This document shows positions 1,567-11,770 of a DNA stretch of 11,770 bases, in pieces. Location of the stretch: the UHGV virus genome UHGV-0394577; one strand, 5' to 3'. The notes beneath the pieces are model-generated. The model made no database searches and had not been told where the DNA came from. It saw only the letters and a list, made by a program, of their open reading frames with translations. This stretch comes from a virus. The position numbers and the translations under genes were made by a program. The stretch's first letter is position 1, and every line of letters begins with the position of its first letter.

Positions 1567-1773
1567 ATGGCTGAAGAGAAAAAAGGCGGTGTTTCGGTGT
1601 ACATAAGCCCCGAAATCGTGGAGGTGCTCAAGCAGCGCCACAAAAAAAACTATGAGGCTGGCGTTGCGGCTGGACTGGATCCGCTGATGACGCCGGAGCC
1701 GTCGATAGGTTCACTTGTGCGATCTTATTTACTTGCGGCGCTTGGGATGCACAAAAATTATGGGGGCGAATAA
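1567..1773 (+). CDS. hypothetical protein (68 aa) immediately upstream of the major capsid gene
   Basis: ATG with AGAGGA SD; stop TAA overlaps the capsid ATG (TAATG), suggesting translational coupling. Confidence 0.5.
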   Translation: MAEEKKGGVSVYISPEIVEVLKQRHKKNYEAGVAAGLDPLMTPEPSIGSLVRSYLLAALGMHKNYGGE

Positions 1774-2828
1774 TGGCAGTCAAAGCAATAGCACTTAACA
1801 CACACCAGCTTTTCGCGTACCTGAATCGCGAGGATATTGCGGAATTTAAATTTAGTCCGCTGTTTACCGCGCTGTTTTTCCCGAACGTGGCGACATTCAA
1901 CACGCAGGACATCATGTTAGATAACCTGGATATTGAAGAAGTCACTATGTCGGCGTTTTGTTCGCCTATGGTTGGCAGCCAGGTTCAGCGCGATAAAGGG
2001 TACGAAACCAGCATTATCCGCCCTGGCTACATGAAGCCAAAACACGAAATCGATCCATTAAAAACAATAATGCGCATGGCTGGAGAAGATCCGGCACAGC
2101 TTAACGATCCTACCTACCGCCGTATGCGCCTGATTACTGGCAACATGCGCCGCCAGATAAACGCCATTAAAGCGCGTGTTGAATGGCTGGCGGTGAATGC
2201 GGTAACGACCGGAAAAAACATCATTGAGGGCGAAGGCATAGAACGCTATGAAATCGACTGGAAGATACCGGAAAAAAACATCATAGAGCAGGCCAAAGGC
2301 CGTAAATGGTCCGAGCAGGATAAAGACATACACGACCCAATCTATGACATTGAGCTATACGCAGATCAGGCAGGTTGCCCCGCCAACGTCATGATTATGG
2401 GCGTTGATGTATGGCGCATGTTACGCAGCTTTAAAAAATTCCGTGAGCTGTACGATCTTTCCCGTGGTTCAGAATCCGCCGCAGAGCTGGCATGTAAAAA
2501 CCTGGGCGAAGTGGTGAGCTTTAAAGGCTATCTTGGTGATCTGGCCCTTATCGTCTATTCCGGCAAATACACTGACAGCGACGGCACAGAAAAATATTTC
2601 CTTGAGCCTGATTTGCTGGTCCTGGGCAACACCAACAATAAAGGGCTGGTGGCCTATGGTGCGATTATGGAACAGGAAGCGGTAAGAACGGGCGCAACGC
2701 AAAACATGTTTTACCCGAAAAACTGGATTGAAGACGGCGATCCGGCGATTGAGTACGTGCAGACACACAGCGCACCGCAGCCGGTACCGGCAGATATTCG
2801 CAAATTTGTTACCGTCAAAATTGGTTAA
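1773..2828 (+). CDS. major capsid protein, phage lambda gpE-like
   Basis: 351 aa; colinear similarity to lambda E recalled from memory (FKFSPLFTALFF, PGYMKPKHEI, DPTYRRMRL, WRMLRSFK, RGSESAAELACKNLGEVVSFKGYLGDLALIVYSGKY, LVLGNTNNKGL, YPKNWIEDGDPA, C-terminal FVTVKIG). Confidence 0.92.
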   Translation: MAVKAIALNTHQLFAYLNREDIAEFKFSPLFTALFFPNVATFNTQDIMLDNLDIEEVTMSAFCSPMVGSQVQRDKGYETSIIRPGYMKPKHEIDPLKTIMRMAGEDPAQLNDPTYRRMRLITGNMRRQINAIKARVEWLAVNAVTTGKNIIEGEGIERYEIDWKIPEKNIIEQAKGRKWSEQDKDIHDPIYDIELYADQAGCPANVMIMGVDVWRMLRSFKKFRELYDLSRGSESAAELACKNLGEVVSFKGYLGDLALIVYSGKYTDSDGTEKYFLEPDLLVLGNTNNKGLVAYGAIMEQEAVRTGATQNMFYPKNWIEDGDPAIEYVQTHSAPQPVPADIRKFVTVKIG

Positions 2829-2839
2829 CGGGGGATTCT

Positions 2840-3175
2840 ATGAACACTCCATACATTGAGTTATTTGCAGGCAGTCAGCAGGTATCAACGACGCTGGTAC
2901 ATTTTGCCGCTGATGCTGGCGTTATTCAGGAATTTACCCCGCTGATGCTGGTGGACAATGGCGAGTTTAAGCCGTGGGATGGTCAGGAATCTGGCAAGGC
3001 TGTTTATCTGACCTCGTACCCCGTGGACACGTCGACGCAGAAATCAGCACAGTGCTACAAGACGGGGATATTCAATATTGCCGCCGTTAACTGGCCTGAG
3101 AGCGTCGACACCGATGCGAAAAAATGCGCCGCCTTTGCGGGTTCTGGCGTATCCGTTCAGCCGCTGGCCCGATAA
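2840..3175 (+). CDS. head decoration protein, phage lambda gpD-like
   Basis: 111 aa (lambda D is about 110 aa); shared motifs TPLML, WDG, YKTGIF, WPE, AFAGSG; SD GGGGGAT. Gene order here is E then D, the reverse of lambda. Confidence 0.8.
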   Translation: MNTPYIELFAGSQQVSTTLVHFAADAGVIQEFTPLMLVDNGEFKPWDGQESGKAVYLTSYPVDTSTQKSAQCYKTGIFNIAAVNWPESVDTDAKKCAAFAGSGVSVQPLAR

Positions 3176-3187
3176 GCAGGGGGAACG

Positions 3188-3601
3188 ATGGCAACGAATG
3201 AAAGCATCATGACGCTACCGCTGGCGAGTAAATTTAAAGCCGAAGCGCGTGCAATGGCTGACAGAGGTTTATCAACCTATGAGGCCGTATATCAACTAAA
3301 CAAACTGGAAGAGCAGGACAAGCCGCGCGCTGATGCGATTATGGCGCTTCATGAGCATAAAGACTATCAGCCGCTGTTGCGTGCAATGGCAAACGTGCCA
3401 TGTATTAGCGTCGATAATGCTCGTGAAATCCTGAACATGACCATAGACCAGGAGCGCCCAAAGGTTGCGCCGGAGCTTACCGCAGCCTTTGAAAACTTTA
3501 TGGACATGCACAGCCCGCAAGCCGTATCAGCAGGCATGGCATACGATGGAAGAAACCCTGGCGATGACGGCGACATCGATCGCATACTGAAAACCATCTG
3601 A
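3188..3601 (+). CDS. hypothetical protein (137 aa), in the position occupied by FI in lambda
   Basis: Good SD (AGGGGGAA); acidic C-terminus; followed directly by a terminator. No recognisable sequence similarity, positional inference only. Confidence 0.5.
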   Translation: MATNESIMTLPLASKFKAEARAMADRGLSTYEAVYQLNKLEEQDKPRADAIMALHEHKDYQPLLRAMANVPCISVDNAREILNMTIDQERPKVAPELTAAFENFMDMHSPQAVSAGMAYDGRNPGDDGDIDRILKTI

Positions 3602-3606
3602 GACAG

Positions 3607-3631
3607 GCCGGAGAAATCCGGCTTTTTTTTT
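3607..3631 (+). terminator. rho-independent terminator (hairpin GCCGGAGAAATCCGGC + T9)
   Basis: Third copy of the same hairpin, identical to the copy at 972-987; the T-run runs into the cosQ-like sequence. Confidence 0.6.
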
Positions 3632-3698
3632 ACGGGTCCTTTCCGGCATATGGACCCGTTACGGGGCGGCGACCTCGCGCGTTTTCGCTATTTATGAG
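3631..3698 (+). other. lambda-type cos site (cos1): cosQ-like TACGGGTCCTTTCCGG, cosN GGGCGGCGACCT at 3664-3675, start of cosB
   Basis: TTTACGGGTCCTTTCCGG...GTTACGGGGCGGCGACCTCGCG.GTTTTCGCTATTTATGA matches the joined right and left ends of phage lambda DNA as recalled from memory; lies upstream of the Nu1-like gene as in lambda. Confidence 0.75.
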
Positions 3699-3808
3699 CC
3701 TTTTCGGGTTGGTGGTGGTGGTTTTGTTGTTCGCTCTATCTCCATGAATAAAAAGGGAAAGATAACACCAACACACCAACCTGAAGCATTAATTAAGTGG
3801 GGGTATTG

Positions 3809-4351
3809 ATGAAATCGCACCTGATGAACAAAAAAACTATGGCGCAAAGCTGCCGCGTAAGCGCCACTGCGTTCGATAAGTGGGGAGTAACTCCCGTTGA
3901 GCGTAAAGGCCGTGAGGCGTTTTATGATGTTGCTAGCGTGATAGACAATAGGGTTAACAATGCAATTAACCAGCTTACAAACGACAAAGGCGAGATTGAT
4001 GATGATGAACTTTTACGCGTAAGAATCAGATTAATGACGGCCCAGGCGGAAGCGCAGGAACTTAAAAACGAGCGCGAACGCGGCGAGGTGATTGATACAG
4101 AGTTTTGCATGTACGCGCTTTCAAAACTGGCAAGTCAGATTTCTTCAATCATGGACAGCCTCCCGCTTACTATGCAAAGGAACTTCCCACAGATGCCCCC
4201 CGCTATGCTGCATGGGCTTAAGAGGGAAGTAGTTAAAGCCTGTAATGCCAGTGCCAGAGTTGCCGACAACCTCCCACAGATACTGGCTGATTACTTGAAA
4301 GAAACAACCGGAAACGTACCGGAAAAGTTGCTACAGAAGAAAGGCGAGTAA
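3809..4351 (+). CDS. terminase small subunit, lambda Nu1-like
   Basis: Track ORF 3797..4351 begins at GTG; ATG 3809 follows a GGGGG SD. The middle and C-terminal regions resemble lambda Nu1 (RLMTAQAEAQELKNERERGEVIDTEFCMYALSKLASQISSIMDSLPLTMQRNFPQ; LKREVVKACNASA), while the N-terminal putative DNA-binding region is divergent. Confidence 0.85.
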   Translation: MKSHLMNKKTMAQSCRVSATAFDKWGVTPVERKGREAFYDVASVIDNRVNNAINQLTNDKGEIDDDELLRVRIRLMTAQAEAQELKNERERGEVIDTEFCMYALSKLASQISSIMDSLPLTMQRNFPQMPPAMLHGLKREVVKACNASARVADNLPQILADYLKETTGNVPEKLLQKKGE

Positions 4352-4472: not shown

Positions 4473-4571
4473 AGAAGAAGAACGGATCTGACTTTTGCCG
4501 GAAAATTTTCATAAACAGATAAAATCCGCGAGGTCGCCGCCCCGTAACGGGCCATAATTCCAGGAAGGACC
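4473..4571 (-). other. second lambda-type cos site in inverted orientation (cos2): cosQ-like, cosN (4531-4542, minus strand), R3-like CCGTTCTTCTTC
   Basis: Reverse complement reads CGGGTCCTTCC...CCGTTACGGGGCGGCGACCTCGCGGATTTT...TTTATGAAAATTTTCCGG...CCGTTCTTCTTC, matching lambda cos further into cosB than cos1 does. Confidence 0.7.
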
Positions 4572-4606
4572 CGACGACACCAGACTATCAGAACGATGGG
4601 GGCACA

Positions 4607-4888
4607 ATGACAGAAGCCGAACTACTGGGATTAATACGCCGCGTCGCCGGAATCAGCCAGCAGGCTGACGAACAGACCGCGCAGCCGGACAGCGTGACCG
4701 CCGAAAATTACGCGCGTGTGGTTGCTGAGGTGATGCGCCGTGATGGTATCCAGCTTAATGGCGTTGATATGCGCAACATACGGATACGCGTTCTTGAAAT
4801 GCTGGCCTACCGTCGCCGCGTGCAGACGTACAGGGAAAAAGCAAAAATTACGTACCACTGGAAGAAGCCGGAACGACTGCGTACGTAA
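4607..4888 (+). CDS. hypothetical protein (93 aa)
   Basis: ATG with GATGGGGG SD; basic C-terminus; stop overlaps the palindrome CGTACGTAATACGTACG. Confidence 0.5.
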   Translation: MTEAELLGLIRRVAGISQQADEQTAQPDSVTAENYARVVAEVMRRDGIQLNGVDMRNIRIRVLEMLAYRRRVQTYREKAKITYHWKKPERLRT

Positions 4889-5108
4889 TACGTACGGATA
4901 TCGAGATAAAGACGGTTTTTTTACCCCACTGGGGAAAAGGTACGCACCTGAATCATCATTATCGTGATCAAGGGTATGTAAAGCCCACCAGCCTGATCAA
5001 CAGTTAACCGGAAAAAAAGCCAGGTATGGGGGGGTAGTGGTTAGCCACGAACAACGAACAAGCTGGACACCGCGCCCACTCTCACGCAGAGAAAAAATTA
5101 CCGTTTCG

Positions 5109-5236
5109 TAGTAGTTAACATGTTAACTACCTGATGAAGTGTTTTTATTGATTTTCCCTTTATGATTCATCTGGTTGCGTGCAAAAAATGTTAACTACCT
5201 TTTTGGTAAAAATGTTAACAGGGCAGCGGTTAACAT
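5109..5236. repeat. cluster of five GTTAAC-containing repeats (ATGTTAACTACCT twice)
   Basis: GTTAAC at about 5112, 5121, 5188, 5213 and 5228 within 125 bp of non-coding DNA; possible operator array. Confidence 0.4.
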
Positions 5237-5365
5237 TTAACCTGGCAAAAATTCCGGTAGGTGGTGATCCCCATATCGGGGAACATCCACCAGCTTCGTT
5301 TTTATAAATTAAACACCTGGGAAAATCAGACTCTGAATTGTGCATTTTTTCAGCAAATCATTTTA

Positions 5366-5385
5366 GTTATACGTTTGGTTATACG
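5366..5385. repeat. two direct GTTATACG repeats (12-bp spacing)
   Basis: GTTATACG at 5366-5373 and 5378-5385. Confidence 0.45.
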
Positions 5386-5468
5386 GTTTAAAAGTTGAAT
5401 CAGGAACATTCTTTTAAATCATTCAGTTACATGATCAATTAAACTACTCTCGTGCCGACCAAATTGCC

Positions 5469-5494
5469 CACCGGATATCACCGGAAAGCACCGA
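5469..5494. repeat. three direct CACCGGA repeats at 10-bp phasing
   Basis: CACCGGATATCACCGGAAAGCACCGA; the same dimer recurs at 5553-5569 and 7383-7399. Confidence 0.45.
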
Positions 5495-5509
5495 ATAAGA
5501 CAGGGATAA

Positions 5510-5540
5510 CCCGCTAATCACTTGATTGGCGGGTTTTTTT
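5510..5540 (+). terminator. rho-independent terminator (CCCGCTAATC / GATTGGCGGG stem + T7)
   Basis: 10-bp stem (one G-U pair), 4-nt loop, 7 T; sits between the two CACCGGA repeat sets upstream of int. Confidence 0.5.
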
Positions 5541-5552
5541 ATGGTTTTTAGT

Positions 5553-5569
5553 CACCGGATATCACCGGA
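5553..5569. repeat. CACCGGATATCACCGGA direct repeat (second copy)
   Basis: Identical 17-mer to 5469-5485. Confidence 0.45.
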
Positions 5570-5596
5570 TTTATAAGCTATCAGCCGGATTTTTTA

Positions 5597-5644
5597 GTTA
5601 TACGCTTAGTTATACGGGCTGGCGTATAACTAAAGCCGTATAAC
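5597..5644. promoter_or_regulatory. symmetric array of GTTATACG motifs (two direct then two inverted) just upstream of int
   Basis: GTTATACG at 5597 and 5609, CGTATAAC at 5623 and 5637, forming an imperfect palindrome of about 50 bp centred near 5620, 35-85 bp upstream of the int ATG. Candidate integrase arm-type or regulator binding sites. Confidence 0.45.
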
Positions 5645-5679
5645 TAAAACCCTGTTTTTTCGTGTGGAATCATAGACAT

Positions 5680-6921
5680 ATGGCGAGAAAAACAACCCAA
5701 TTAACCACAGTGCAGATCAAAGCAGCCAGGCCAGCGGAAAAGGAGTACACCCTACAGGACGGCGGGGGGCTTTTTCTCCTGGTCAAACCGTCCGGATCAA
5801 AACTCTGGAGATTTTCCTACTACCGACCATCGGACAAAAAAAGAATATTGCTGAGTTTTGGATCGCTTGAAGATGTTTCCCTGGCTGATGCCAGAAAACG
5901 CCGTAGCGAGTACAGGACGTTAATCAGTGCCGGAACTGACCCGCAGGACCACGAGAGGCAAAAAAGAGAGACAGAGGCCCGAAGACAAGGGAACACGTTC
6001 GAAAATGTGGCGGCGGCATGGTACCAGGTGAAAATCAGCCAGAATCTGGCCCCCAACACGATTAAAGACATCTGGAGATCGCTGGAAAAATATGTATTCC
6101 CGTTCATCGGTAACACGCCAATAGACACCCTGACCGCTCGCAGGTTTGTTGAGGTGCTTACCCCCATCAAGGAACGTGGCAACCTGGAAACACTCAAACG
6201 GGTTTTACAGCGAGTCAATGAAGTAATGGATTACGCCGCCAACAGTGGGCTGATCGATACCAATCCGGCTATGAATGTGCGTAAGGCGTTCCCCTCCCCT
6301 GTAAAAAAACATATGCCAACAATCCGCCCCGAGCAGTTGCCGGAGCTTATGCAGGCTTTATCAGTATCGGCAACAGAACGGCAGACCAGATTACTGATCG
6401 AATGGCAGTTACTGACCGTAACCCGTCCCGCCGAAGCGTCATCAACTCGGTGGGATGAAATCGACATGGACGCGAAGCGATGGACGATACCCGCCGGACG
6501 CATGAAGATGAGGCGTGATCACGTTATCCCGCTTTGTAGTCAGGCTATGGCGGTACTGGAGGCTATGAAACCAATCAGCCATCACCGCGATTACGTTTTC
6601 CCGAGCCTGAAAGACCCACGGCAGCCTATGAACAGCCAGACCGCAAACGCAGCATTGCGGCGGATGGGGTTTGGCGGGGTTCTGGTTTCTCACGGTATGC
6701 GCGCCATATTCAGCACCGCAGCGAACGAAGAAGGATTTGAGCCGGACGTAATAGAGGCCGCACTAGCCCACGTGGACACCAACGAAGTGAGACGGGCATA
6801 CAACCGGAGCAACTACATAGAAAAACGCATCGTGCTTATGCGCTGGTGGGGCGAATTTGTCGAGGCGGCGGCAACGGGCGTGACCCTTGCCAGTGGTAAA
6901 AGGGGTATTCGGGCCGTGTAG
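5680..6921 (+). CDS. int: tyrosine recombinase / integrase, P4-family
   Basis: Track ORF 5662..6921 begins at GTG; ATG at 5680 gives the N-terminus MARKTTQLTTVQIKAARPAEKEYTLQDGGGLFLLVKPSGSKLWRFSYY typical of P4-like integrases; C-terminal catalytic region with R...HVIPL...HGMR..F...A and a Y in RRAYNRSNY. Confidence 0.92.
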   Translation: MARKTTQLTTVQIKAARPAEKEYTLQDGGGLFLLVKPSGSKLWRFSYYRPSDKKRILLSFGSLEDVSLADARKRRSEYRTLISAGTDPQDHERQKRETEARRQGNTFENVAAAWYQVKISQNLAPNTIKDIWRSLEKYVFPFIGNTPIDTLTARRFVEVLTPIKERGNLETLKRVLQRVNEVMDYAANSGLIDTNPAMNVRKAFPSPVKKHMPTIRPEQLPELMQALSVSATERQTRLLIEWQLLTVTRPAEASSTRWDEIDMDAKRWTIPAGRMKMRRDHVIPLCSQAMAVLEAMKPISHHRDYVFPSLKDPRQPMNSQTANAALRRMGFGGVLVSHGMRAIFSTAANEEGFEPDVIEAALAHVDTNEVRRAYNRSNYIEKRIVLMRWWGEFVEAAATGVTLASGKRGIRAV

Positions 6922-7019
6922 CTGTACAGAAAACCAGTAAAAACTACGAAAACCATGTAAAACCGTCGTATAATTGCGGTTCTTGTTACGCCAGGGGATG
7001 CCTTCATGAGTCGGATAAT

Positions 7020-7250
7020 ATGCGGACAAATACAAACAGCAATTGCGACGGGCTGCAACTGGCCCTGATCGTTAAACATGAATTTTGGTCAACCTACGAT
7101 CCGGAGGACAGAACGACAGCCCCATCAAAAAGGCAGGTAGTAGATTTTCTGGTATCCCGTGGGACTTCCAGAAATTTGGCTGAGAGTATCGACAGGGTTG
7201 TAAGGCCCGTATCAATGAAGACCGGAGGCAGGCCAAAAAAATGGCGGTAA
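7020..7250 (+). CDS. hypothetical protein (76 aa)
   Basis: ORF followed by a strong terminator; weak RBS. An ATG at 7006 with a better SD is in another frame and stops after 20 codons, so the true start is uncertain. Confidence 0.35.
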   Translation: MRTNTNSNCDGLQLALIVKHEFWSTYDPEDRTTAPSKRQVVDFLVSRGTSRNLAESIDRVVRPVSMKTGGRPKKWR

Positions 7251-7262
7251 CAATCCTGAAAG

Positions 7263-7285
7263 CGGCAGAAATGCCGCTTTTTTTA
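7263..7285 (+). terminator. rho-independent terminator (GCGGCA-GAAA-TGCCGC + T7)
   Basis: Perfect 6-bp stem, GAAA loop and T-run 12 nt after the stop at 7250. Confidence 0.6.
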
Positions 7286-7314
7286 TAATTCCCTTTCAAA
7301 TCATCAACATAAAA

Positions 7315-7328
7315 AACGGTTATAACCG
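7315..7328. promoter_or_regulatory. perfect 14-bp palindrome ACGGTTATAACCGT upstream of alpA
   Basis: Related to the GTTATACG motif family found upstream of int; about 90 bp upstream of the alpA ATG. Confidence 0.35.
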
Positions 7329-7382
7329 TTTAAAAACGGTGGGAACTGTTTTTACCCATATTCGATGATTTACCGTATTTGT

Positions 7383-7399
7383 CACCGGAATACACCGGA
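7383..7399. repeat. CACCGGAATACACCGGA direct repeat (third copy of the CACCGGA dimer)
   Basis: Lies 19 bp upstream of the alpA start codon. Confidence 0.45.
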
Positions 7400-7417
7400 T
7401 TCACAAGGTAAATCACG

Positions 7418-7624
7418 ATGGAAGCAATCAAAAAAGTCATCTTTCGCCAGGAAGTAAAAAAACTTATCCACATCAAGGCAGACAGCACGCTGCAAAGCAT
7501 GATCAACGCCGGAGAATTCCCGCAGGGTTTTCGCGTTGGTTTACGCCGTCGAGGATGGTATGAGGATGACGTAATCGCCTGGATGAAAGAACGCGAACAG
7601 GAAGCACGCGGAACGGCTGCTTAA
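7418..7624 (+). CDS. alpA: AlpA/Vis-family phage regulatory protein (excisionase-like HTH)
   Basis: 68 aa; STLQSMINAGEFPQGFRVGLRRRGWYEDDVIAWMKER fits the AlpA-family pattern (FP, G.R..GW.E.EV..W); sits downstream of int as in P4-like and PICI elements. Confidence 0.75.
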   Translation: MEAIKKVIFRQEVKKLIHIKADSTLQSMINAGEFPQGFRVGLRRRGWYEDDVIAWMKEREQEARGTAA

Positions 7625-7656
7625 CGGGTATCACAGATATGACGAACACGAAAAAA

Positions 7657-7680
7657 GCGGCCCCGATATGGAGCCGCCTT
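7657..7680 (-). terminator. possible terminator for minus-strand transcripts (5-bp GC stem, then T6 on the minus strand)
   Basis: AAAAAAGCGGC...GCCGCC on the plus strand; on the minus strand the stem is followed by TTTTTT. Weak stem with a long loop. Confidence 0.3.
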
Positions 7681-8000
7681 TCTGAACAATTAACCCGCTG
7701 CGCATTATGTATCAACAAACATAAGCCAGGGCATGATAGCCGCTATCAGGCTGGTGGGCAATGCTATCAGTCTGTTTCAGTGCGTTTCCATAACTGCGAA
7801 GCTCTCTCCTTTGATGAGTATTCTTTAAGGTACTTCTCAAGGGCAAAAGAACACGGCGCGAATCGTTCTGATTCATGCTCTTTCTTTCTGCGTCGTCTTT
7901 TTCGTGCAGGTGATGTTTTTTTGGTTGATTCTTCGTTGGTCATTGTGTGCGCCTGTAAAGCAATGCGCCGGAGTTCCTCACACCACGGCGCTGATAGTTT

Positions 8001-8192
8001 TTATCCTTTGGGTTCTATGCCGCGCCGCTTTAGTTCAGTGCGCCCCAACTCTTTAAGCCAGTTGGCTAGGCTTATGCCGTCGCTCTGTGCTTCTTTGTCG
8101 AATTGCTCTTTTAGCTCTGGAGAAATTCGCATTCTGAATTGTGGGGATTGCCCGTCCCCTTTAGGGCTTTTATCGCGTTTGATTGTTGACAA
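8001..8192 (-). CDS. ribbon-helix-helix (RHH) DNA-binding protein, putative regulator
   Basis: C-terminal FRMRISPELKEQFDKEAQSDGISLANWLKELGR fits the RHH pattern (beta strand then two helices, as in MobC/CopG-type proteins). Proposed start is TTG 8192 with AGGTGA SD; alternatives are ATG 8132 or the track's TTG 8273. Confidence 0.4.
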   Translation of the reverse strand: MSTIKRDKSPKGDGQSPQFRMRISPELKEQFDKEAQSDGISLANWLKELGRTELKRRGIEPKG

Positions 8193-8235
8193 GTGGTCAC
8201 CTATTGAATTAGCCTTTCTATTGTTAGGTGACCAC
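8193..8235. promoter_or_regulatory. operator-like inverted repeat GTGGTCACCT-n23-AGGTGACCAC
   Basis: Perfect 10-bp inverted repeat; each half contains the palindromic GGTCACC/GGTGACC core; located at the 5' end of the RHH gene and upstream of the Ash/Icd operon. Confidence 0.4.
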
Positions 8236-8326
8236 CTTAACACAAGAGCACTTAAAAAAGCAAAGCCCCGCAAGTGTCATTACCACTCGCAGGGCTTCTA
8301 ACCAACAACGTAAACTAGGAGCCGTT

Positions 8327-8524
8327 ATGGTTGCCGTAAATCATATAACACACCTTGTACACACACAAACGGCCTTTGTGTGGCGTTTTCTGGCCCTGAG
8401 TGCCGGAGAATCTCAAATCATCCACGTAACCGCCTGGACGGAACGCGAAGCGCGTAGCCGTTGCCCGTCAGGTTGTGTTGCTGTATTTGCCGCTCGTATT
8501 CGTCAGGGGTCACATCATGCGTAA
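8327..8524 (+). CDS. Ash/Icd-like small protein (P4-type), short paralog
   Basis: 65 aa from ATG 8327 (SD TAGGAG), internal to track ORF 8228..8524. TAFVWRFLALS...VTAWTEREARSRCP...VFAARIRQG is paralogous to the C-terminus of the next ORF and resembles Ash/Icd-like proteins as recalled from memory. Confidence 0.5.
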   Translation: MVAVNHITHLVHTQTAFVWRFLALSAGESQIIHVTAWTEREARSRCPSGCVAVFAARIRQGSHHA

Positions 8525-8984
8525 AAACCGCTTGCAAAAAATTATAACGGGGCTGTATGCTTCCCCCGTCGCCCACATGGCGACCGGGTTTGACAGCCTG
8601 AATACTGTAGCGGACAGCCGCTTACATTCCGATATGCGGTTTTTTTGTGTCCGTAAACCTACCCATACCCGCATTATGGCGGGGCGTAACGGGGGAGCCT
8701 TTGCGCTCGCTGGTTCCTACAGTACCAGTCTGTCAACCCTGTTACGTCTCGCCACCATGTTTGACAGCGTAGTAGCGAGACTCCTTAAAATTACTGTAGG
8801 AGCCTTTCACATGGCTGTATCCGCACGCCCTTACTTTGTCTGGCGCTTTATGCAGTGCCACCACAGCAGCATTGATGTATTCACCGTTACCGCAGCCACT
8901 GAACGCGAAGCACGCGCCCAGCTGCCGCACGCACATCTGATTTTTGTCGCCCGTATTCGTCAGGGGAAAACCTATGCACAATAA
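8517..8984 (+). CDS. Ash-family-like protein, long paralog
   Basis: 155 aa from ATG 8517 (SD AGGGGT); start overlaps the previous stop (ATGCGTAA); C-terminus YFVWRFMQC...VTAATEREARAQLP...IFVARIRQG is homologous to the upstream ORF. Confidence 0.5.
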   Translation: MRKNRLQKIITGLYASPVAHMATGFDSLNTVADSRLHSDMRFFCVRKPTHTRIMAGRNGGAFALAGSYSTSLSTLLRLATMFDSVVARLLKITVGAFHMAVSARPYFVWRFMQCHHSSIDVFTVTAATEREARAQLPHAHLIFVARIRQGKTYAQ

Positions 8985-9195
8985 AACCACACCGGACGCA
9001 GCAGCTGCCGCACTCACTACGCTGATGCACGCACTTATTGATATTGAATGCACAGCAGGGATTGCACAAAAGGAAGAACGGGAAGAATACACATTGTTCG
9101 CCCTGGAATGTATCCGATACACCGCTACGCGGTCGCTGAATGACGCTAAAAATATTCTTATTGCTGATTGTAAAAATGGCGGTGGTTATGCGTGA
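8974..9195 (+). CDS. hypothetical protein (73 aa)
   Basis: ATG 8974 with AGGGGAA SD; overlaps the upstream stop; Ala-rich N-terminus. Confidence 0.45.
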   Translation: MHNKTTPDAAAAALTTLMHALIDIECTAGIAQKEEREEYTLFALECIRYTATRSLNDAKNILIADCKNGGGYA

Positions 9196-9421
9196 TATTT
9201 ACCACGAAACAATATACCGCGCATTTCTTGCACTTTCTCACAGTGAAAATATGTTGGAAATATTGCGCATATGGCTTGAAACACTTGGCGACAATGAATG
9301 CGACAAACAAAAATCAAGAATTGTCACGGCATTAATAACGCTTCTTGAGCCTGTAATAATGGAACTGCAAGAAATAGACCTATTGCACGACAGATATAAA
9401 GAACAGCACACCGGAGAATAA
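9188..9421 (+). CDS. hypothetical protein (77 aa)
   Basis: ATG 9188 overlapping the upstream stop (ATGCGTGA); internal to track ORF 9140..9421. Confidence 0.45.
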   Translation: MRDIYHETIYRAFLALSHSENMLEILRIWLETLGDNECDKQKSRIVTALITLLEPVIMELQEIDLLHDRYKEQHTGE

Positions 9422-9426
9422 AAATA

Positions 9427-9726
9427 ATGAAACTTAAATATCCTGGCTTAACTGCCAGCGGCAAAACTCGCACTAAATTCATGTGCGGGGATATTTACCG
9501 CGATAAGTACGGCGGCACGGTAATGATTAAGAGCGTGGAGGAACGGCGCGTAACTTACCGTCGTGAAGGCTACCAATATGATTGCGTGATGCCTGTTTAT
9601 CAGTTCGAACGTGATTTTTCTCTTGTGCAGGCCGTACCGCGTAACGTGCCCACCAGCAGGGAGAAAGCACGCGCCAATATTCAGGAAATAAGAAAGATGT
9701 TGAACGTATTCAGGGGTAAAAAATGA
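9427..9726 (+). CDS. hypothetical protein (99 aa)
   Basis: ATG 9427 with GGAG 10 nt upstream; stop overlaps the primase start (ATGA). Confidence 0.5.
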   Translation: MKLKYPGLTASGKTRTKFMCGDIYRDKYGGTVMIKSVEERRVTYRREGYQYDCVMPVYQFERDFSLVQAVPRNVPTSREKARANIQEIRKMLNVFRGKK

Positions 9727-11477
9727 AACTTGCACCGAACGTAAAACAGCAGTCACGCGGCATAAAACACAAAGGAACAGAAGTCATTATTTTTGCGGGT
9801 AGTGATGCCTGGTCACACGCTAAACAATGGCAGGAACATGACGCGCGTATGGCCGGAGATAATGAGCCTCCTGTGTGGCTTGGGGATCAGCAGTTATCCG
9901 AACTGGATAAGCTGCAAATTGTGCCGGAAGGCCGAAAATCAGTACGCATATTCAGGGCCGGACATCTTGAACCTGTAATGATAAAGGCGATTGGTCAGAA
10001 GCTGGCGGCGGCAGGTGTACAGGATGCAAATTTTTACCCTGAGGGAATGCACGTTCAGGAGGTGGAGAACTGGCGCGAATATCTGGCCCGTGAGCGCCAG
10101 AATCTTTCTGAAGGTCTGTTCGTTGAGCTTCCGGTAAAGCAAAAGGCGCAACTTTCGCAGATGGCGGACAGTGAACGCGCTCAGCTGCTTTCCGATCGCT
10201 TTGATGGCGTTTGCGTACATCCTGAAAGTGAAATCGTTCACGTATGGCGCGGCGGGGTATGGTGTCCGGTCAGCACAATGGAACTTAGCCGCGAAATGGT
10301 GGCGATCTATTCAGAGCACAGGGCCACTTTCAGCAAGCGCGTAATCAATAACGCCGTTGAAGCGTTAAAAGTTATTGCCGAACCAATGGGCGAGCCGTCC
10401 GGCGATTTGTTGCCGTTCGCCAATGGTGCGCTTGACCTGAAAACGGGGGAATTTTCCCCGCACACGCCGGAGAACTGGATCACCACGCACAACGGTATTG
10501 AGTACACGCCACCAGCACCAGGGGAGAACATCCGCGATAACGCGCCAAATTTTCATAAATGGCTTGAGCACGCAGCCGGAAAAGACCCGCGCAAGATGAT
10601 GCGTATATGTGCCGCGCTGTACATGATTATGGCGAACCGGTACGACTGGCAGATGTTTATTGAGGCCACCGGAGACGGCGGAAGCGGTAAAAGTACATTC
10701 ACGCATATAGCCAGCCTTCTGGCAGGGAAACAGAACACGGTAAGCGCTGAAATGACCTCACTTGATGATGCTGGTGGACGTGCGCAGGTTGTCGGGAGTC
10801 GTCTTATCGTCCTGGCTGACCAGCCGAAATATACAGGCGAAGGAACGGGCATCAAGAAAATCACGGGCGGCGACCCCGTGGAAATTAACCCGAAATATGA
10901 AAAGCGTTTCACGGCGGTAATCAGGGCGGTGGTGCTGACGACCAACAACAACCCGATGATATTCACCGAACGGGCCGGAGGCGTGGCACGTCGTCGGGTT
11001 ATTTTTCGCTTTGACAATATCGTTAGCGAGGCAGAAAAGGACAAGGATTTGCCGGAGAAGGTCGCGGCTGAAATCCCTGTGATTATCCGCCGATTACTGG
11101 CGAACTTTGCCGACCCTGAAAAGGCCCGGGCTTTACTCCTGGAACAGCGCGACGGTGATGAAGCACTGGCAATAAAGCAACAGACGGATCCGGTTATTGA
11201 GTTTTGCCAGTTCCTGAATTTTCTGGAGGAAGCGCGCGGCCTGATGATGGGTGGCGGTGGCGATTCAGTGAAGTACACGACCAGGAACAGCCTTTACCGC
11301 GTCTATCTGGCGTTTATGGCGTACGCAGGCAGGAGCAAACCGCTAAACGTAAATGACTTTGGCAAGGCTATGAAGCCCGCTGCAAAAGTTTACGGACATG
11401 AATATATTACGCGGAAAGTTAAGGGAGTAACGCAGACTAACGCAATAACAACAGACGATTGTGACGCGTTTTTATAA
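9723..11477 (+). CDS. P4-alpha-like primase/helicase replication protein (SF3 helicase domain)
   Basis: 584 aa; Walker A GDGGSGKST, Walker B-like LIVLAD, later VVLTTNN motif; architecture typical of P4-family/PICI primase-helicase; iteron origin immediately downstream. Confidence 0.88.
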   Translation: MKLAPNVKQQSRGIKHKGTEVIIFAGSDAWSHAKQWQEHDARMAGDNEPPVWLGDQQLSELDKLQIVPEGRKSVRIFRAGHLEPVMIKAIGQKLAAAGVQDANFYPEGMHVQEVENWREYLARERQNLSEGLFVELPVKQKAQLSQMADSERAQLLSDRFDGVCVHPESEIVHVWRGGVWCPVSTMELSREMVAIYSEHRATFSKRVINNAVEALKVIAEPMGEPSGDLLPFANGALDLKTGEFSPHTPENWITTHNGIEYTPPAPGENIRDNAPNFHKWLEHAAGKDPRKMMRICAALYMIMANRYDWQMFIEATGDGGSGKSTFTHIASLLAGKQNTVSAEMTSLDDAGGRAQVVGSRLIVLADQPKYTGEGTGIKKITGGDPVEINPKYEKRFTAVIRAVVLTTNNNPMIFTERAGGVARRRVIFRFDNIVSEAEKDKDLPEKVAAEIPVIIRRLLANFADPEKARALLLEQRDGDEALAIKQQTDPVIEFCQFLNFLEEARGLMMGGGGDSVKYTTRNSLYRVYLAFMAYAGRSKPLNVNDFGKAMKPAAKVYGHEYITRKVKGVTQTNAITTDDCDAFL

Positions 11478-11491
11478 TTTTTTGCAATGGC

Positions 11492-11718
11492 TGTCTACCC
11501 TGTCTACCTGAGTAAAGGAAAATACATTTAATTCAGTATATTAAGTTAGGTAGATAGCCTTTTTTCCCTTGTCTACCTGCTGTCTACCCTCTCTACCTGA
11601 TTTTACCTGAACCAGAAAGGGAGGTAGATACGGGTAGATAGTGAATAAAAGCACTCTACCCCGCTGAAAGCCGCGCCATTACTGGAATGGGGGCCAGCAA
11701 GGTAGATAAGGTAGACAA
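11492..11718. repeat. replication origin iterons (TGTCTACC / GGTAGATA, about 11 copies in both orientations)
   Basis: Direct copies at 11492, 11501, 11571, 11581 and 11590 (degenerate TCTCTACC); inverted copies at 11549, 11623, 11633, 11701 and 11711; 9-10 bp phasing within clusters; similar to the P4 ori/crr type I iteron TGTTCACC as recalled from memory. Confidence 0.7.
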
Positions 11719-11770
11719 GGGGAGGCACAACTCAAAACTTTTTAAACGAGGGGGTAAAAATAAATATGCA

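Follow-up and report, generated by a model that had tools for sequence, protein, structure and literature searches.

The non-coding spacer upstream of the integrase gene in a circular EcCICFT073-type satellite of Escherichia coli reads as an ordinary attP

Satellite phage P4 integrates into leuX. Its attP was reportedly described by Pierson & Kahn in 1987. The literature sets the phage-inducible chromosomal islands (PICIs) apart from P4 (PMC6092414), and the prototype of the Gram-negative PICIs is EcCICFT073 of E. coli CFT073 (Fillol-Salom et al. 2018, PMC6092414; 2019, PMC6739421). Spontaneous excision and circularisation of this element have been demonstrated by PCR, and a fragment carrying int and attP is enough for its integration (PMC6092414). 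It possesses two lambda-like cos sites together with homologues of a capsid protein (c1499) and a decoration protein (c1500), its replication is concatemeric, and Rpp redirects the TerS of the helper phage (PMC6092414; PMC6739421). Here we analyse a stretch of 11,770 bp, referred to as the window, in which a packaging module lies directly upstream of an integrase gene. We consider it very probable that the window holds exactly one full unit (11,770 bp) of a PICI that depends on lambda and belongs to the EcCICFT073 family, assembled from an excised circle or head-to-tail replicative concatemer and cut open at an arbitrary point inside a gene, and that the spacer in front of int is its attP.

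Comparison with the prototype proved informative. EcCICFT073 occupies positions 12931 to approximately 23900 of L026, between roxA and phoQ. Both elements share the order of their genes, which runs through int, an alpA-like gene, an Icd-like region, DUF4222, a D5_N primase, SSB, PerC, an E-like capsid gene, a D-like decoration gene, a 137-aa gene, an inter-cos cassette and a 93-aa gene. In each of them the cassette is bounded by a pair of inverted cos sites of the lambda type, and the size is about 11-12 kb. Identity to EcCICFT073 is high for the primase (97%), the decoration protein (95%), the capsid protein (94%), the 137-aa protein (92%), SSB (91%) and the 93-aa protein (87%), whereas it falls to 28% for the AlpA-like protein and 24% for Int. 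The attachment site also differs, being the proL tRNA-Pro gene by yejM here and the roxA/phoQ intergenic region in CFT073. A further difference lies between the cos sites, where a 180-aa Nu1-like protein is encoded here and a dissimilar 144-aa protein, at the presumed rppA position, in CFT073; there is no significant similarity between the two (E = 7.6), and a PDB sequence search for Rpp/TerS structures with the Nu1-like protein returned no matches. Judged by sequence, the element is closely related to EcCICFT073, and its int/att module appears to have been swapped. Several features of the Gram-negative PICIs of this type are present, namely a terminal int at a specific att site, a primase of its own, two cos sites of the helper type and an incomplete head module, and its 11,770 bp fall within the approximately 10-15 kb of the class.

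The preliminary description had placed capsid, terS and cos upstream of int, and all of these are indeed present. The gpE-like major capsid gene (1773-2828, plus strand) and the gpD-like decoration gene (2840-3175, plus strand), both recognised by Pfam and PHROG, are followed by the gene for the 137-aa protein (3188-3601, plus strand), whose EcCICFT073 counterpart was compared above, and by a first cos with a perfect lambda cosN 12-mer, GGGCGGCGACCT, on the plus strand at 3664-3675. The Nu1-like small terminase homologue of 180 aa (3797-4351, plus strand; Pfam Phage_Nu1 2e-22, phrog_57 1e-52) comes next, then the second, inverted cos with the same perfect 12-mer on the minus strand at 4531-4542, and lastly the final gene of the late module, which encodes 93 aa and belongs to phrog_1561 of PHROG (4607-4888, plus strand). 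Each of the cosN 12-mers sits within a 76-nt inverted arm, with the Nu1-like gene between them. The cos at 4531-4542 is the nearer to the spacer and lies outside it, with the 93-aa gene in between; cos 3664 and cos 4531 would be the places where the helper terminase cuts for packaging, and neither is in the spacer. On the replication side, the element has its own primase-replicase (pri-rep; D5_N/DUF5906/Pox_D5) at 9723-11477.

Two other kinds of satellite need to be considered alongside EcCICFT073. The element resembles the capsid-forming PICIs (cf-PICIs; Alqurainy et al., bioRxiv 10.1101/2022.09.08.507074) in having its own homologue of an HK97-fold major capsid protein and of a small terminase, but it differs from them in being without genes for TerL, portal, protease and head-tail connectors. 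The E-like, D-like and Nu1-like proteins are the only head or packaging homologues in the 11,770-bp unit, which has no lysis or tail genes; no ORFs for TerL, portal, protease or head-tail connectors were found in these 11.77 kb, and there is no room for them. The element can therefore not build and fill capsids alone, and since TerL, portal and protease are missing it is not a cf-PICI.

The resemblance to P4 lies in the integration module. As in P4-type integrases, the N-terminus of Int is an Arm-DNA-bind_3 domain, the core equals a tRNA 3' end and arm-type repeats occur on both sides of it; as in a P4-type attP, int adjoins attP, the arm sites overlap the region upstream of int, and the 3' end of the tRNA would be restored. 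Unlike P4, the element has another tRNA target, another core and another arm motif (AGTTATACG), and is without the late genes sid, psu and delta. Neither Sid, Psu and Delta nor the alpha primase-helicase was found among the Pfam and PHROG matches of the main ORFs scanned, and the late module is of the lambda E/D/Nu1-like instead of the P4 type. Because sid, psu and delta are absent, we do not regard the element as P4-like.

The arrangement of int directly behind late genes is accounted for by circular permutation. An exact look-up of the capsid protein led to an ENA contig of 11,825 bp, ERZ807465 NODE_100_length_11825_cov_101.34, the ends of which share a direct overlap of 55 bp, as expected when the path through a SPAdes graph with k = 55 is circular. 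After removal of this terminal overlap, a rotation of the contig is 100% identical to the window, which thus covers a circular assembly cycle exactly once and in full. Its two ends join within a gene: the first bases of a 92-aa gene (ATGCA, plus strand) are at 11766-11770 and the gene runs on at 1-274, and it is unbroken both in the integrated copy L001 (21489-21767) and in the contig L024. In 5,426 complete E. coli genomes, megablast revealed an integrated element of approximately 11.5 kb, with the chromosomal order tRNA-Pro, int, alpA-like gene, and so on through primase, SSB, PerC, capsid, decoration, Nu1-like and 93-aa genes to host yejO/narP. Compared with L001, the window is circularly permuted: 5439-7998 corresponds to the left end of the integrated copy and 5281-5463 to its right end, while 9187-11770 reaches L001 position 21493 and window position 1 resumes at 21494, so that the window ends abut at 21493/21494. 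The unusual gene order results only from the point at which the circle was cut open. No second copy of any module occurs in the window.

The spacer itself extends from 4889 to 5679 (791 bp), between the stop of the 93-aa ORF at 4888 and the ATG of int at 5680, so the 0.8 kb of non-coding DNA reported between the packaging module and int is real. Its ORFs are of 42-61 aa only and, having no match among the PHROG families, are treated as non-coding; its GC content is 0.39-0.46 versus about 0.50 on both sides. The preliminary description had also found no tRNA there. This holds for complete genes, as ARAGORN detected no complete tRNA and no tmRNA over the whole window, and the search of the spacer against Rfam gave nothing at gathering score and, at E<=10, only noise far below the gathering scores. 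It does not hold for tRNA-like sequence, since 5447-5461 is the exact 3'-terminal 15 nt of tRNA-Pro(GGG). The premise was wrong in detail, for the att core is this very 3' end of tRNA-Pro.

We read the whole of 4889-5679 (plus strand) as the attP region of the satellite, which begins with a variable left part (4889-5280) and continues through P arm, core and P' arm to the region upstream of int. The left part differs among relatives and is missing from the integrated copy L001, and some relatives show a 158-bp indel at 4918/4919. Motifs of the type ATGTTAAC are clustered in this part, at 5111-5238; over the window as a whole the motif is not enriched, its count being reached by 28 of 200 shuffles. 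To the right, at 5447-5463 on the plus strand, is the core CTCTCGTGCCGACCAAA, the crossover region, which consists of the final 15 nt of tRNA-Pro(GGG) followed by AA. All 17 nt are common to attP, to attL and to the empty site attB, where they form the tRNA-Pro 3' end and the AA downstream of it. In L005, ARAGORN places a tRNA-Pro(GGG) at 9706-9782, and the end of this gene is the core sequence. The cores at attR are slightly degenerate, CTCTCGTGC-GACCA or CTCTCGTGCC-----AAAAA, and in the alignment of attP, attL and attR the direct repeat between attL and attR amounts to only 10-17 bp.

Integrated copies allow each half of the spacer to be assigned. Window positions 4801-5456 match the attR side of the copies in L012 and L019 at 100% identity, with host DNA beyond, and positions 5447-11770 continued by 1-679 match the attL side of L005, likewise at 100%, with tRNA-Pro(GGG) preceding. 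Left of the core, then, the spacer is identical to the attR of integrated copies, and right of the core to their attL. Host sequence starts exactly at the core in these copies, with tRNA-Pro/yejM on the left and yejO/narP on the right. When attB was rebuilt by fusing the host sequences of the two sides and searched in the 5,426 complete E. coli genomes, it was found contiguous in 4,825, annotated as yejM / tRNA-Pro / yejO, and one match was 100% identical in a single piece. The gene order of the window alone might suggest that int is internal, as the preliminary description had also proposed; it would then belong to a larger integrated element, the spacer being plain intergenic DNA and the true ends lying outside the window. 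We attach virtually no credence to this, as in integrated copies identical to the window the boundary with host DNA coincides with the core, the ends of the window join each other, and the empty site exists in those 4,825 genomes.

The reverse search, in which the attP junction (window 5150-5750) was the query against the same 5,426 genomes, gave the complementary picture. The junction was contiguous in none of them; all 547 matching places represent one half only and end at the core, and the breakpoint of every E. coli match falls at positions 298-314 of the query. Exact copies of Int occur at 10 places, each 219 nt from tRNA-Pro(GGG) and adjoining yejM, and exact copies of either Int or the 93-aa protein at 20 places, each of them single copy with host DNA at both ends. 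A single-copy element with an att core and host genes beside it, which the preliminary description had named as a finding that would refute it if made to the left of the window start, is what the integrated relatives have, and at both ends. Taken at the level of bases, the exchange of attB and attP to give attL and attR can be reconstructed base for base.

These counts bear directly on the proposal of tandem satellites, according to which two copies would lie head to tail at proL and the spacer would be an internal attP-like junction, the repeat having collapsed into a cycle during assembly. Such an array would give the same junction sequence and, in a de Bruijn graph, a cycle, and contig ends near the att core could reflect pruned host branches; the assembly cycle alone fits a monomeric circle, a concatemer or a tandem array with pruned low-coverage host branches and cannot separate them. 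We nevertheless hold tandem integration to be very unlikely, given that a contiguous junction is found in 0 of 5,426 genomes, that all 20 of the places with exact Int or 93-aa protein are single copy with host genes flanking, and that the contig forms an isolated cycle, the overlap of which is exactly k (55 bp) and which contains no host sequence. The position of the contig end also argues against it. The ERZ807465 contig starts at window position 5479, 16 nt beyond the right edge of the core, and the chance of an arbitrary cut that near the core is about 0.6%. An explanation of this start as a simple graph branch at the att core was rejected, because the break would be expected at 5447 or at 5456-5463. 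The end near the core may be the trace of a pruned att branch, which would mean that integrated copies coexisted in the sample.

The excised circle or concatemer, which the preliminary description had offered as its other possibility, is by comparison supported, as the window is a full circular assembly unit and in the spacer the left arm of attR is joined through the core to the right arm of attL. It might be objected that the circle is a computational artefact, in which a single integrated copy was wrongly assembled or artificially made circular. In favour of this, only one contig shows the circle, plus one similar place, and the pattern is absent from three other collections: exact or near-exact attP patterns gave 0 matches each in IMG/VR, the JGI metagenome contigs and the GTDB representative genomes, so the circle is without confirmation from a second, independent source. 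We regard an artefact as extremely improbable all the same. The att repeat of 10-17 bp shared by attL and attR is far shorter than k = 55, and a single integrated copy can for this reason not yield a false circle; the 55-mers that span attP need real reads, and we infer from this that attP-spanning reads must have existed. Both arms are, moreover, base-perfect to real attR and attL arms, and the junction is exactly as Int-mediated excision predicts.

A stronger reading of the same contig would be that the circle, instead of being a transient intermediate of excision or replication, is an abundant, autonomously maintained, plasmid-like episome in a natural sample, or at least that the metagenome directly captured a PICI during induction in situ. 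The basis for it is the k-mer coverage of 101x and the lack of a host flank. We think this very unlikely; the coverage of the circular contig is compatible with induction and is no proof of it, and PICIs are described in the literature as being without a plasmid-like state (PMC6092414). Megablast against the PLSDB plasmids gave partial mosaic matches only and no full-length episome, the whole window against GenBank phages gave only cos-sized matches, and a literature search on the ENA accession ERZ807465 returned no paper.

If the spacer is attP, as we consider very probable, its internal organisation may be interpreted by reference to the arm-type (lambda/P4-like) attP sites. Several features of these sites are found here, namely an identical core in attP and attB, arm repeats on two sides and an arm-binding domain in Int. 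The tyrosine integrase (413 aa; 5680-6921, plus strand) carries this domain at its N-terminus (Pfam Arm-DNA-bind_3 3e-23, Phage_int_M 1e-25, Phage_integrase 1e-28). The motif AGTTATACG has 9 matches with at most one mismatch in the whole window versus 1.94 expected, a number reached by 0 of 200 shuffles, and six of the nine are in the spacer, two left of the core and four right of it. The P arm holds two putative sites in direct orientation on the plus strand, AGTTATACG at 5365-5373 and GGTTATACG at 5377-5385, and the P' arm four, direct at 5596-5604 and 5608-5616 and inverted at 5623-5631 and 5637-5645, which places these four 35-84 nt upstream of the ATG of int. In L001, an element about 91% identical, all six copies are intact, the two of the P arm in its attR and the four of the P' arm in its attL, and the substitutions fall between the sites. 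From the domain of Int, their placement and their conservation we infer that the six repeats are arm-type Int sites.

A second family of repeats could be connected with the direction of recombination. The heptamer CACCGGA occurs 11 times versus 1.26 expected, and 0 of 200 shuffles reach 11. Three CACCGGA/CACCGAA half-sites in 10-bp phase adjoin the core on the plus strand at 5469-5495, starting at 5469, 5479 and, in degenerate form, 5489; a second pair of half-sites, CACCGGATATCACCGGA, is found at 5553-5569 (plus strand, starts 5553/5563), and a third, CACCGGAATACACCGGA, at 7383-7399 (plus strand, starts 7383/7393), just upstream of the alpA-like gene. This gene (7418-7624, plus strand) is located downstream of int in the same orientation and encodes an HTH protein of 68 aa, a candidate excisionase and regulator, which matches PHROG 66/2790 'excisionase and transcriptional regulator' at 1e-7 and Pfam AlpA weakly (0.0037; 17.6 bits, under the 21-bit cutoff). 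The CACCGGA repeats are candidate sites for this AlpA-like protein acting as recombination directionality factor.

Two terminators complete the region. Just right of the core, on the plus strand at 5508-5541, the terminator scan found a strong intrinsic terminator consisting of a 12-bp stem and then T7 (5508-5535 + T7), with a folding energy of -20.3 kcal/mol and a z of -5.4. Native attB has an analogous hairpin, the native proL terminator, and in the integrated element the terminator of the satellite would lie directly downstream of the rebuilt tRNA-Pro, replacing the native one. Left of the core a hairpin with a T-rich tail is present at 5260-5303 (plus strand; z -2.5), in a region conserved in the attR of L001, and it is probably the terminator of the late (packaging) operon.

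Taken together, these elements suggest how the spacer might function. Recombination of attL with attR by Int would excise the satellite and thereby join its right end, with the capsid, decoration and Nu1-like genes, cos and the 93-aa gene, to the int end. Within an intasome, Int would link the core to the arm sites, and the AlpA-like protein could bind the phased CACCGGA repeats beside the core and upstream of int and alpA and so confer directionality as well as regulation of int and alpA. On integration into proL the element would supply both the 3' end of the tRNA and a replacement terminator, and the tRNA would consequently stay intact.

The element is, in our view, the excised circular or concatemeric form of an already known kind of satellite and as such is ordinary; in a characterised satellite family, a circular form with attP is expected biology also for an element whose integration module has been swapped. 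Likewise the spacer, as far as its bases can tell, is the ordinary attP of a known kind of E. coli satellite. The finding has little biological weight and is more methodological. Circular contigs that are opened arbitrarily place int beside late genes, and a 'missing tRNA' by int in such contigs calls for a search for a 15-20 nt tRNA 3' fragment first, ahead of any proposal of an unusual architecture. For the family, the analysis documents the anatomy of attP for a proL-targeting int module, with its core, its six arm sites, candidate RDF sites and a replacement tRNA terminator, and it indicates that a PICI lineage very common in E. coli can have its excised form recovered from a public assembly.

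Two inverted cos-containing arms of 76 nt each (window 3633-3708 and 4498-4573), which are 79% complementary and carry a perfect cosN apiece, enclose the Nu1-like gene at 3797-4351. In EcCICFT073, the prototype Gram-negative PICI, the presumed rppA position inside the same bracket is taken instead by a protein of 144 aa that is not related to the Nu1-like one. Because the bracket holds unrelated proteins in the two elements, the gene for packaging specificity looks like a cassette, flanked by inverted cos sites, that can be exchanged. Other repeats are found elsewhere in the window. A terminator-like cassette, GCCGGAGAAATCCGGCTTTTTT, occurs three times (966-993, 1329-1356 and 3601-3628), in each case after a successive gene block, and short iterated GGTAGA(T/C)AAGG units lie at 11478-11765, just downstream of the primase gene. 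This is the position at which the replication origin is placed in the PICI literature.

The exact 351-aa capsid protein of the window is also present in a satellite at 3149-13114 of locus L022 (GCA_002544195.1, NMGQ01000002.1). The integrase of that satellite, at 409 aa, differs from that of the window, and its insertion site is another one, downstream of pntB and of a gene for an AI-2E transporter. This pairing of an identical capsid with a different integrase and site shows that the int/att and late modules are exchanged modularly. A further relative (L014; GCA_021721635.1, 4283-5600) has the same late module and an identical 93-aa protein followed by clpS/clpA, rather than yejO/narP, which indicates a third integration site. 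The integrated copy in locus L005 (GCA_030003975.1) matches window 5447-11770 joined to 1-679 at 100% identity, and is broken directly after the SSB gene, at 16770-21242 (window position 679), by three consecutive genes. Two of these, of 359 and 532 aa, match tyrosine recombinases (Phage_integrase), the latter faintly, and the third, of 669 aa, has no family match; the insertion resembles the recombinase-in-trio type.

Within the Icd-like region, at 8555-8604 and 8672-8759 on the + strand, Rfam identified two RNA elements: a C4 antisense RNA, scored at 71.7 bits with E = 1e-12 (RF01695), and, at 46.8 bits, the a1/b1 element that it targets (RF03163). The pair is a PICI-borne RNA immunity module in the style of P1 and P4. 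The 220-aa ORF at 7639-8301 matches no family and is probably not a real gene; AT skew around it is strongly negative (-0.40 at 7801-8200), and RefSeq annotates the homologous region of locus L001 with an Icd-like pseudogene and a YlcI/YnfO gene on the opposite strand.

The left part of the spacer upstream of int is variable. At window 4918/4919, just past the 93-aa gene, an additional stretch of 158 bp is present in several relatives (4313-4470 in L013) and absent from the window and from L012 and L019. Also in this part is a cluster of ATGTTAAC motifs (5111-5238) that includes a perfect 20-bp palindrome, GTAGTTAACATGTTAACTAC, at 5111-5130, and over the whole window the motif is not enriched. 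Both ends of the SPAdes source contig (ERZ807465 NODE_100), a rotation of the window once its 55-bp terminal overlap is removed, fall at window 5479, only 16 nt right of the att core, a proximity with about a 0.6% chance for an arbitrary cut. These ends may be the trace of pruned attL/attR branches and, if so, excised and integrated forms of the element were present together in the same sample.
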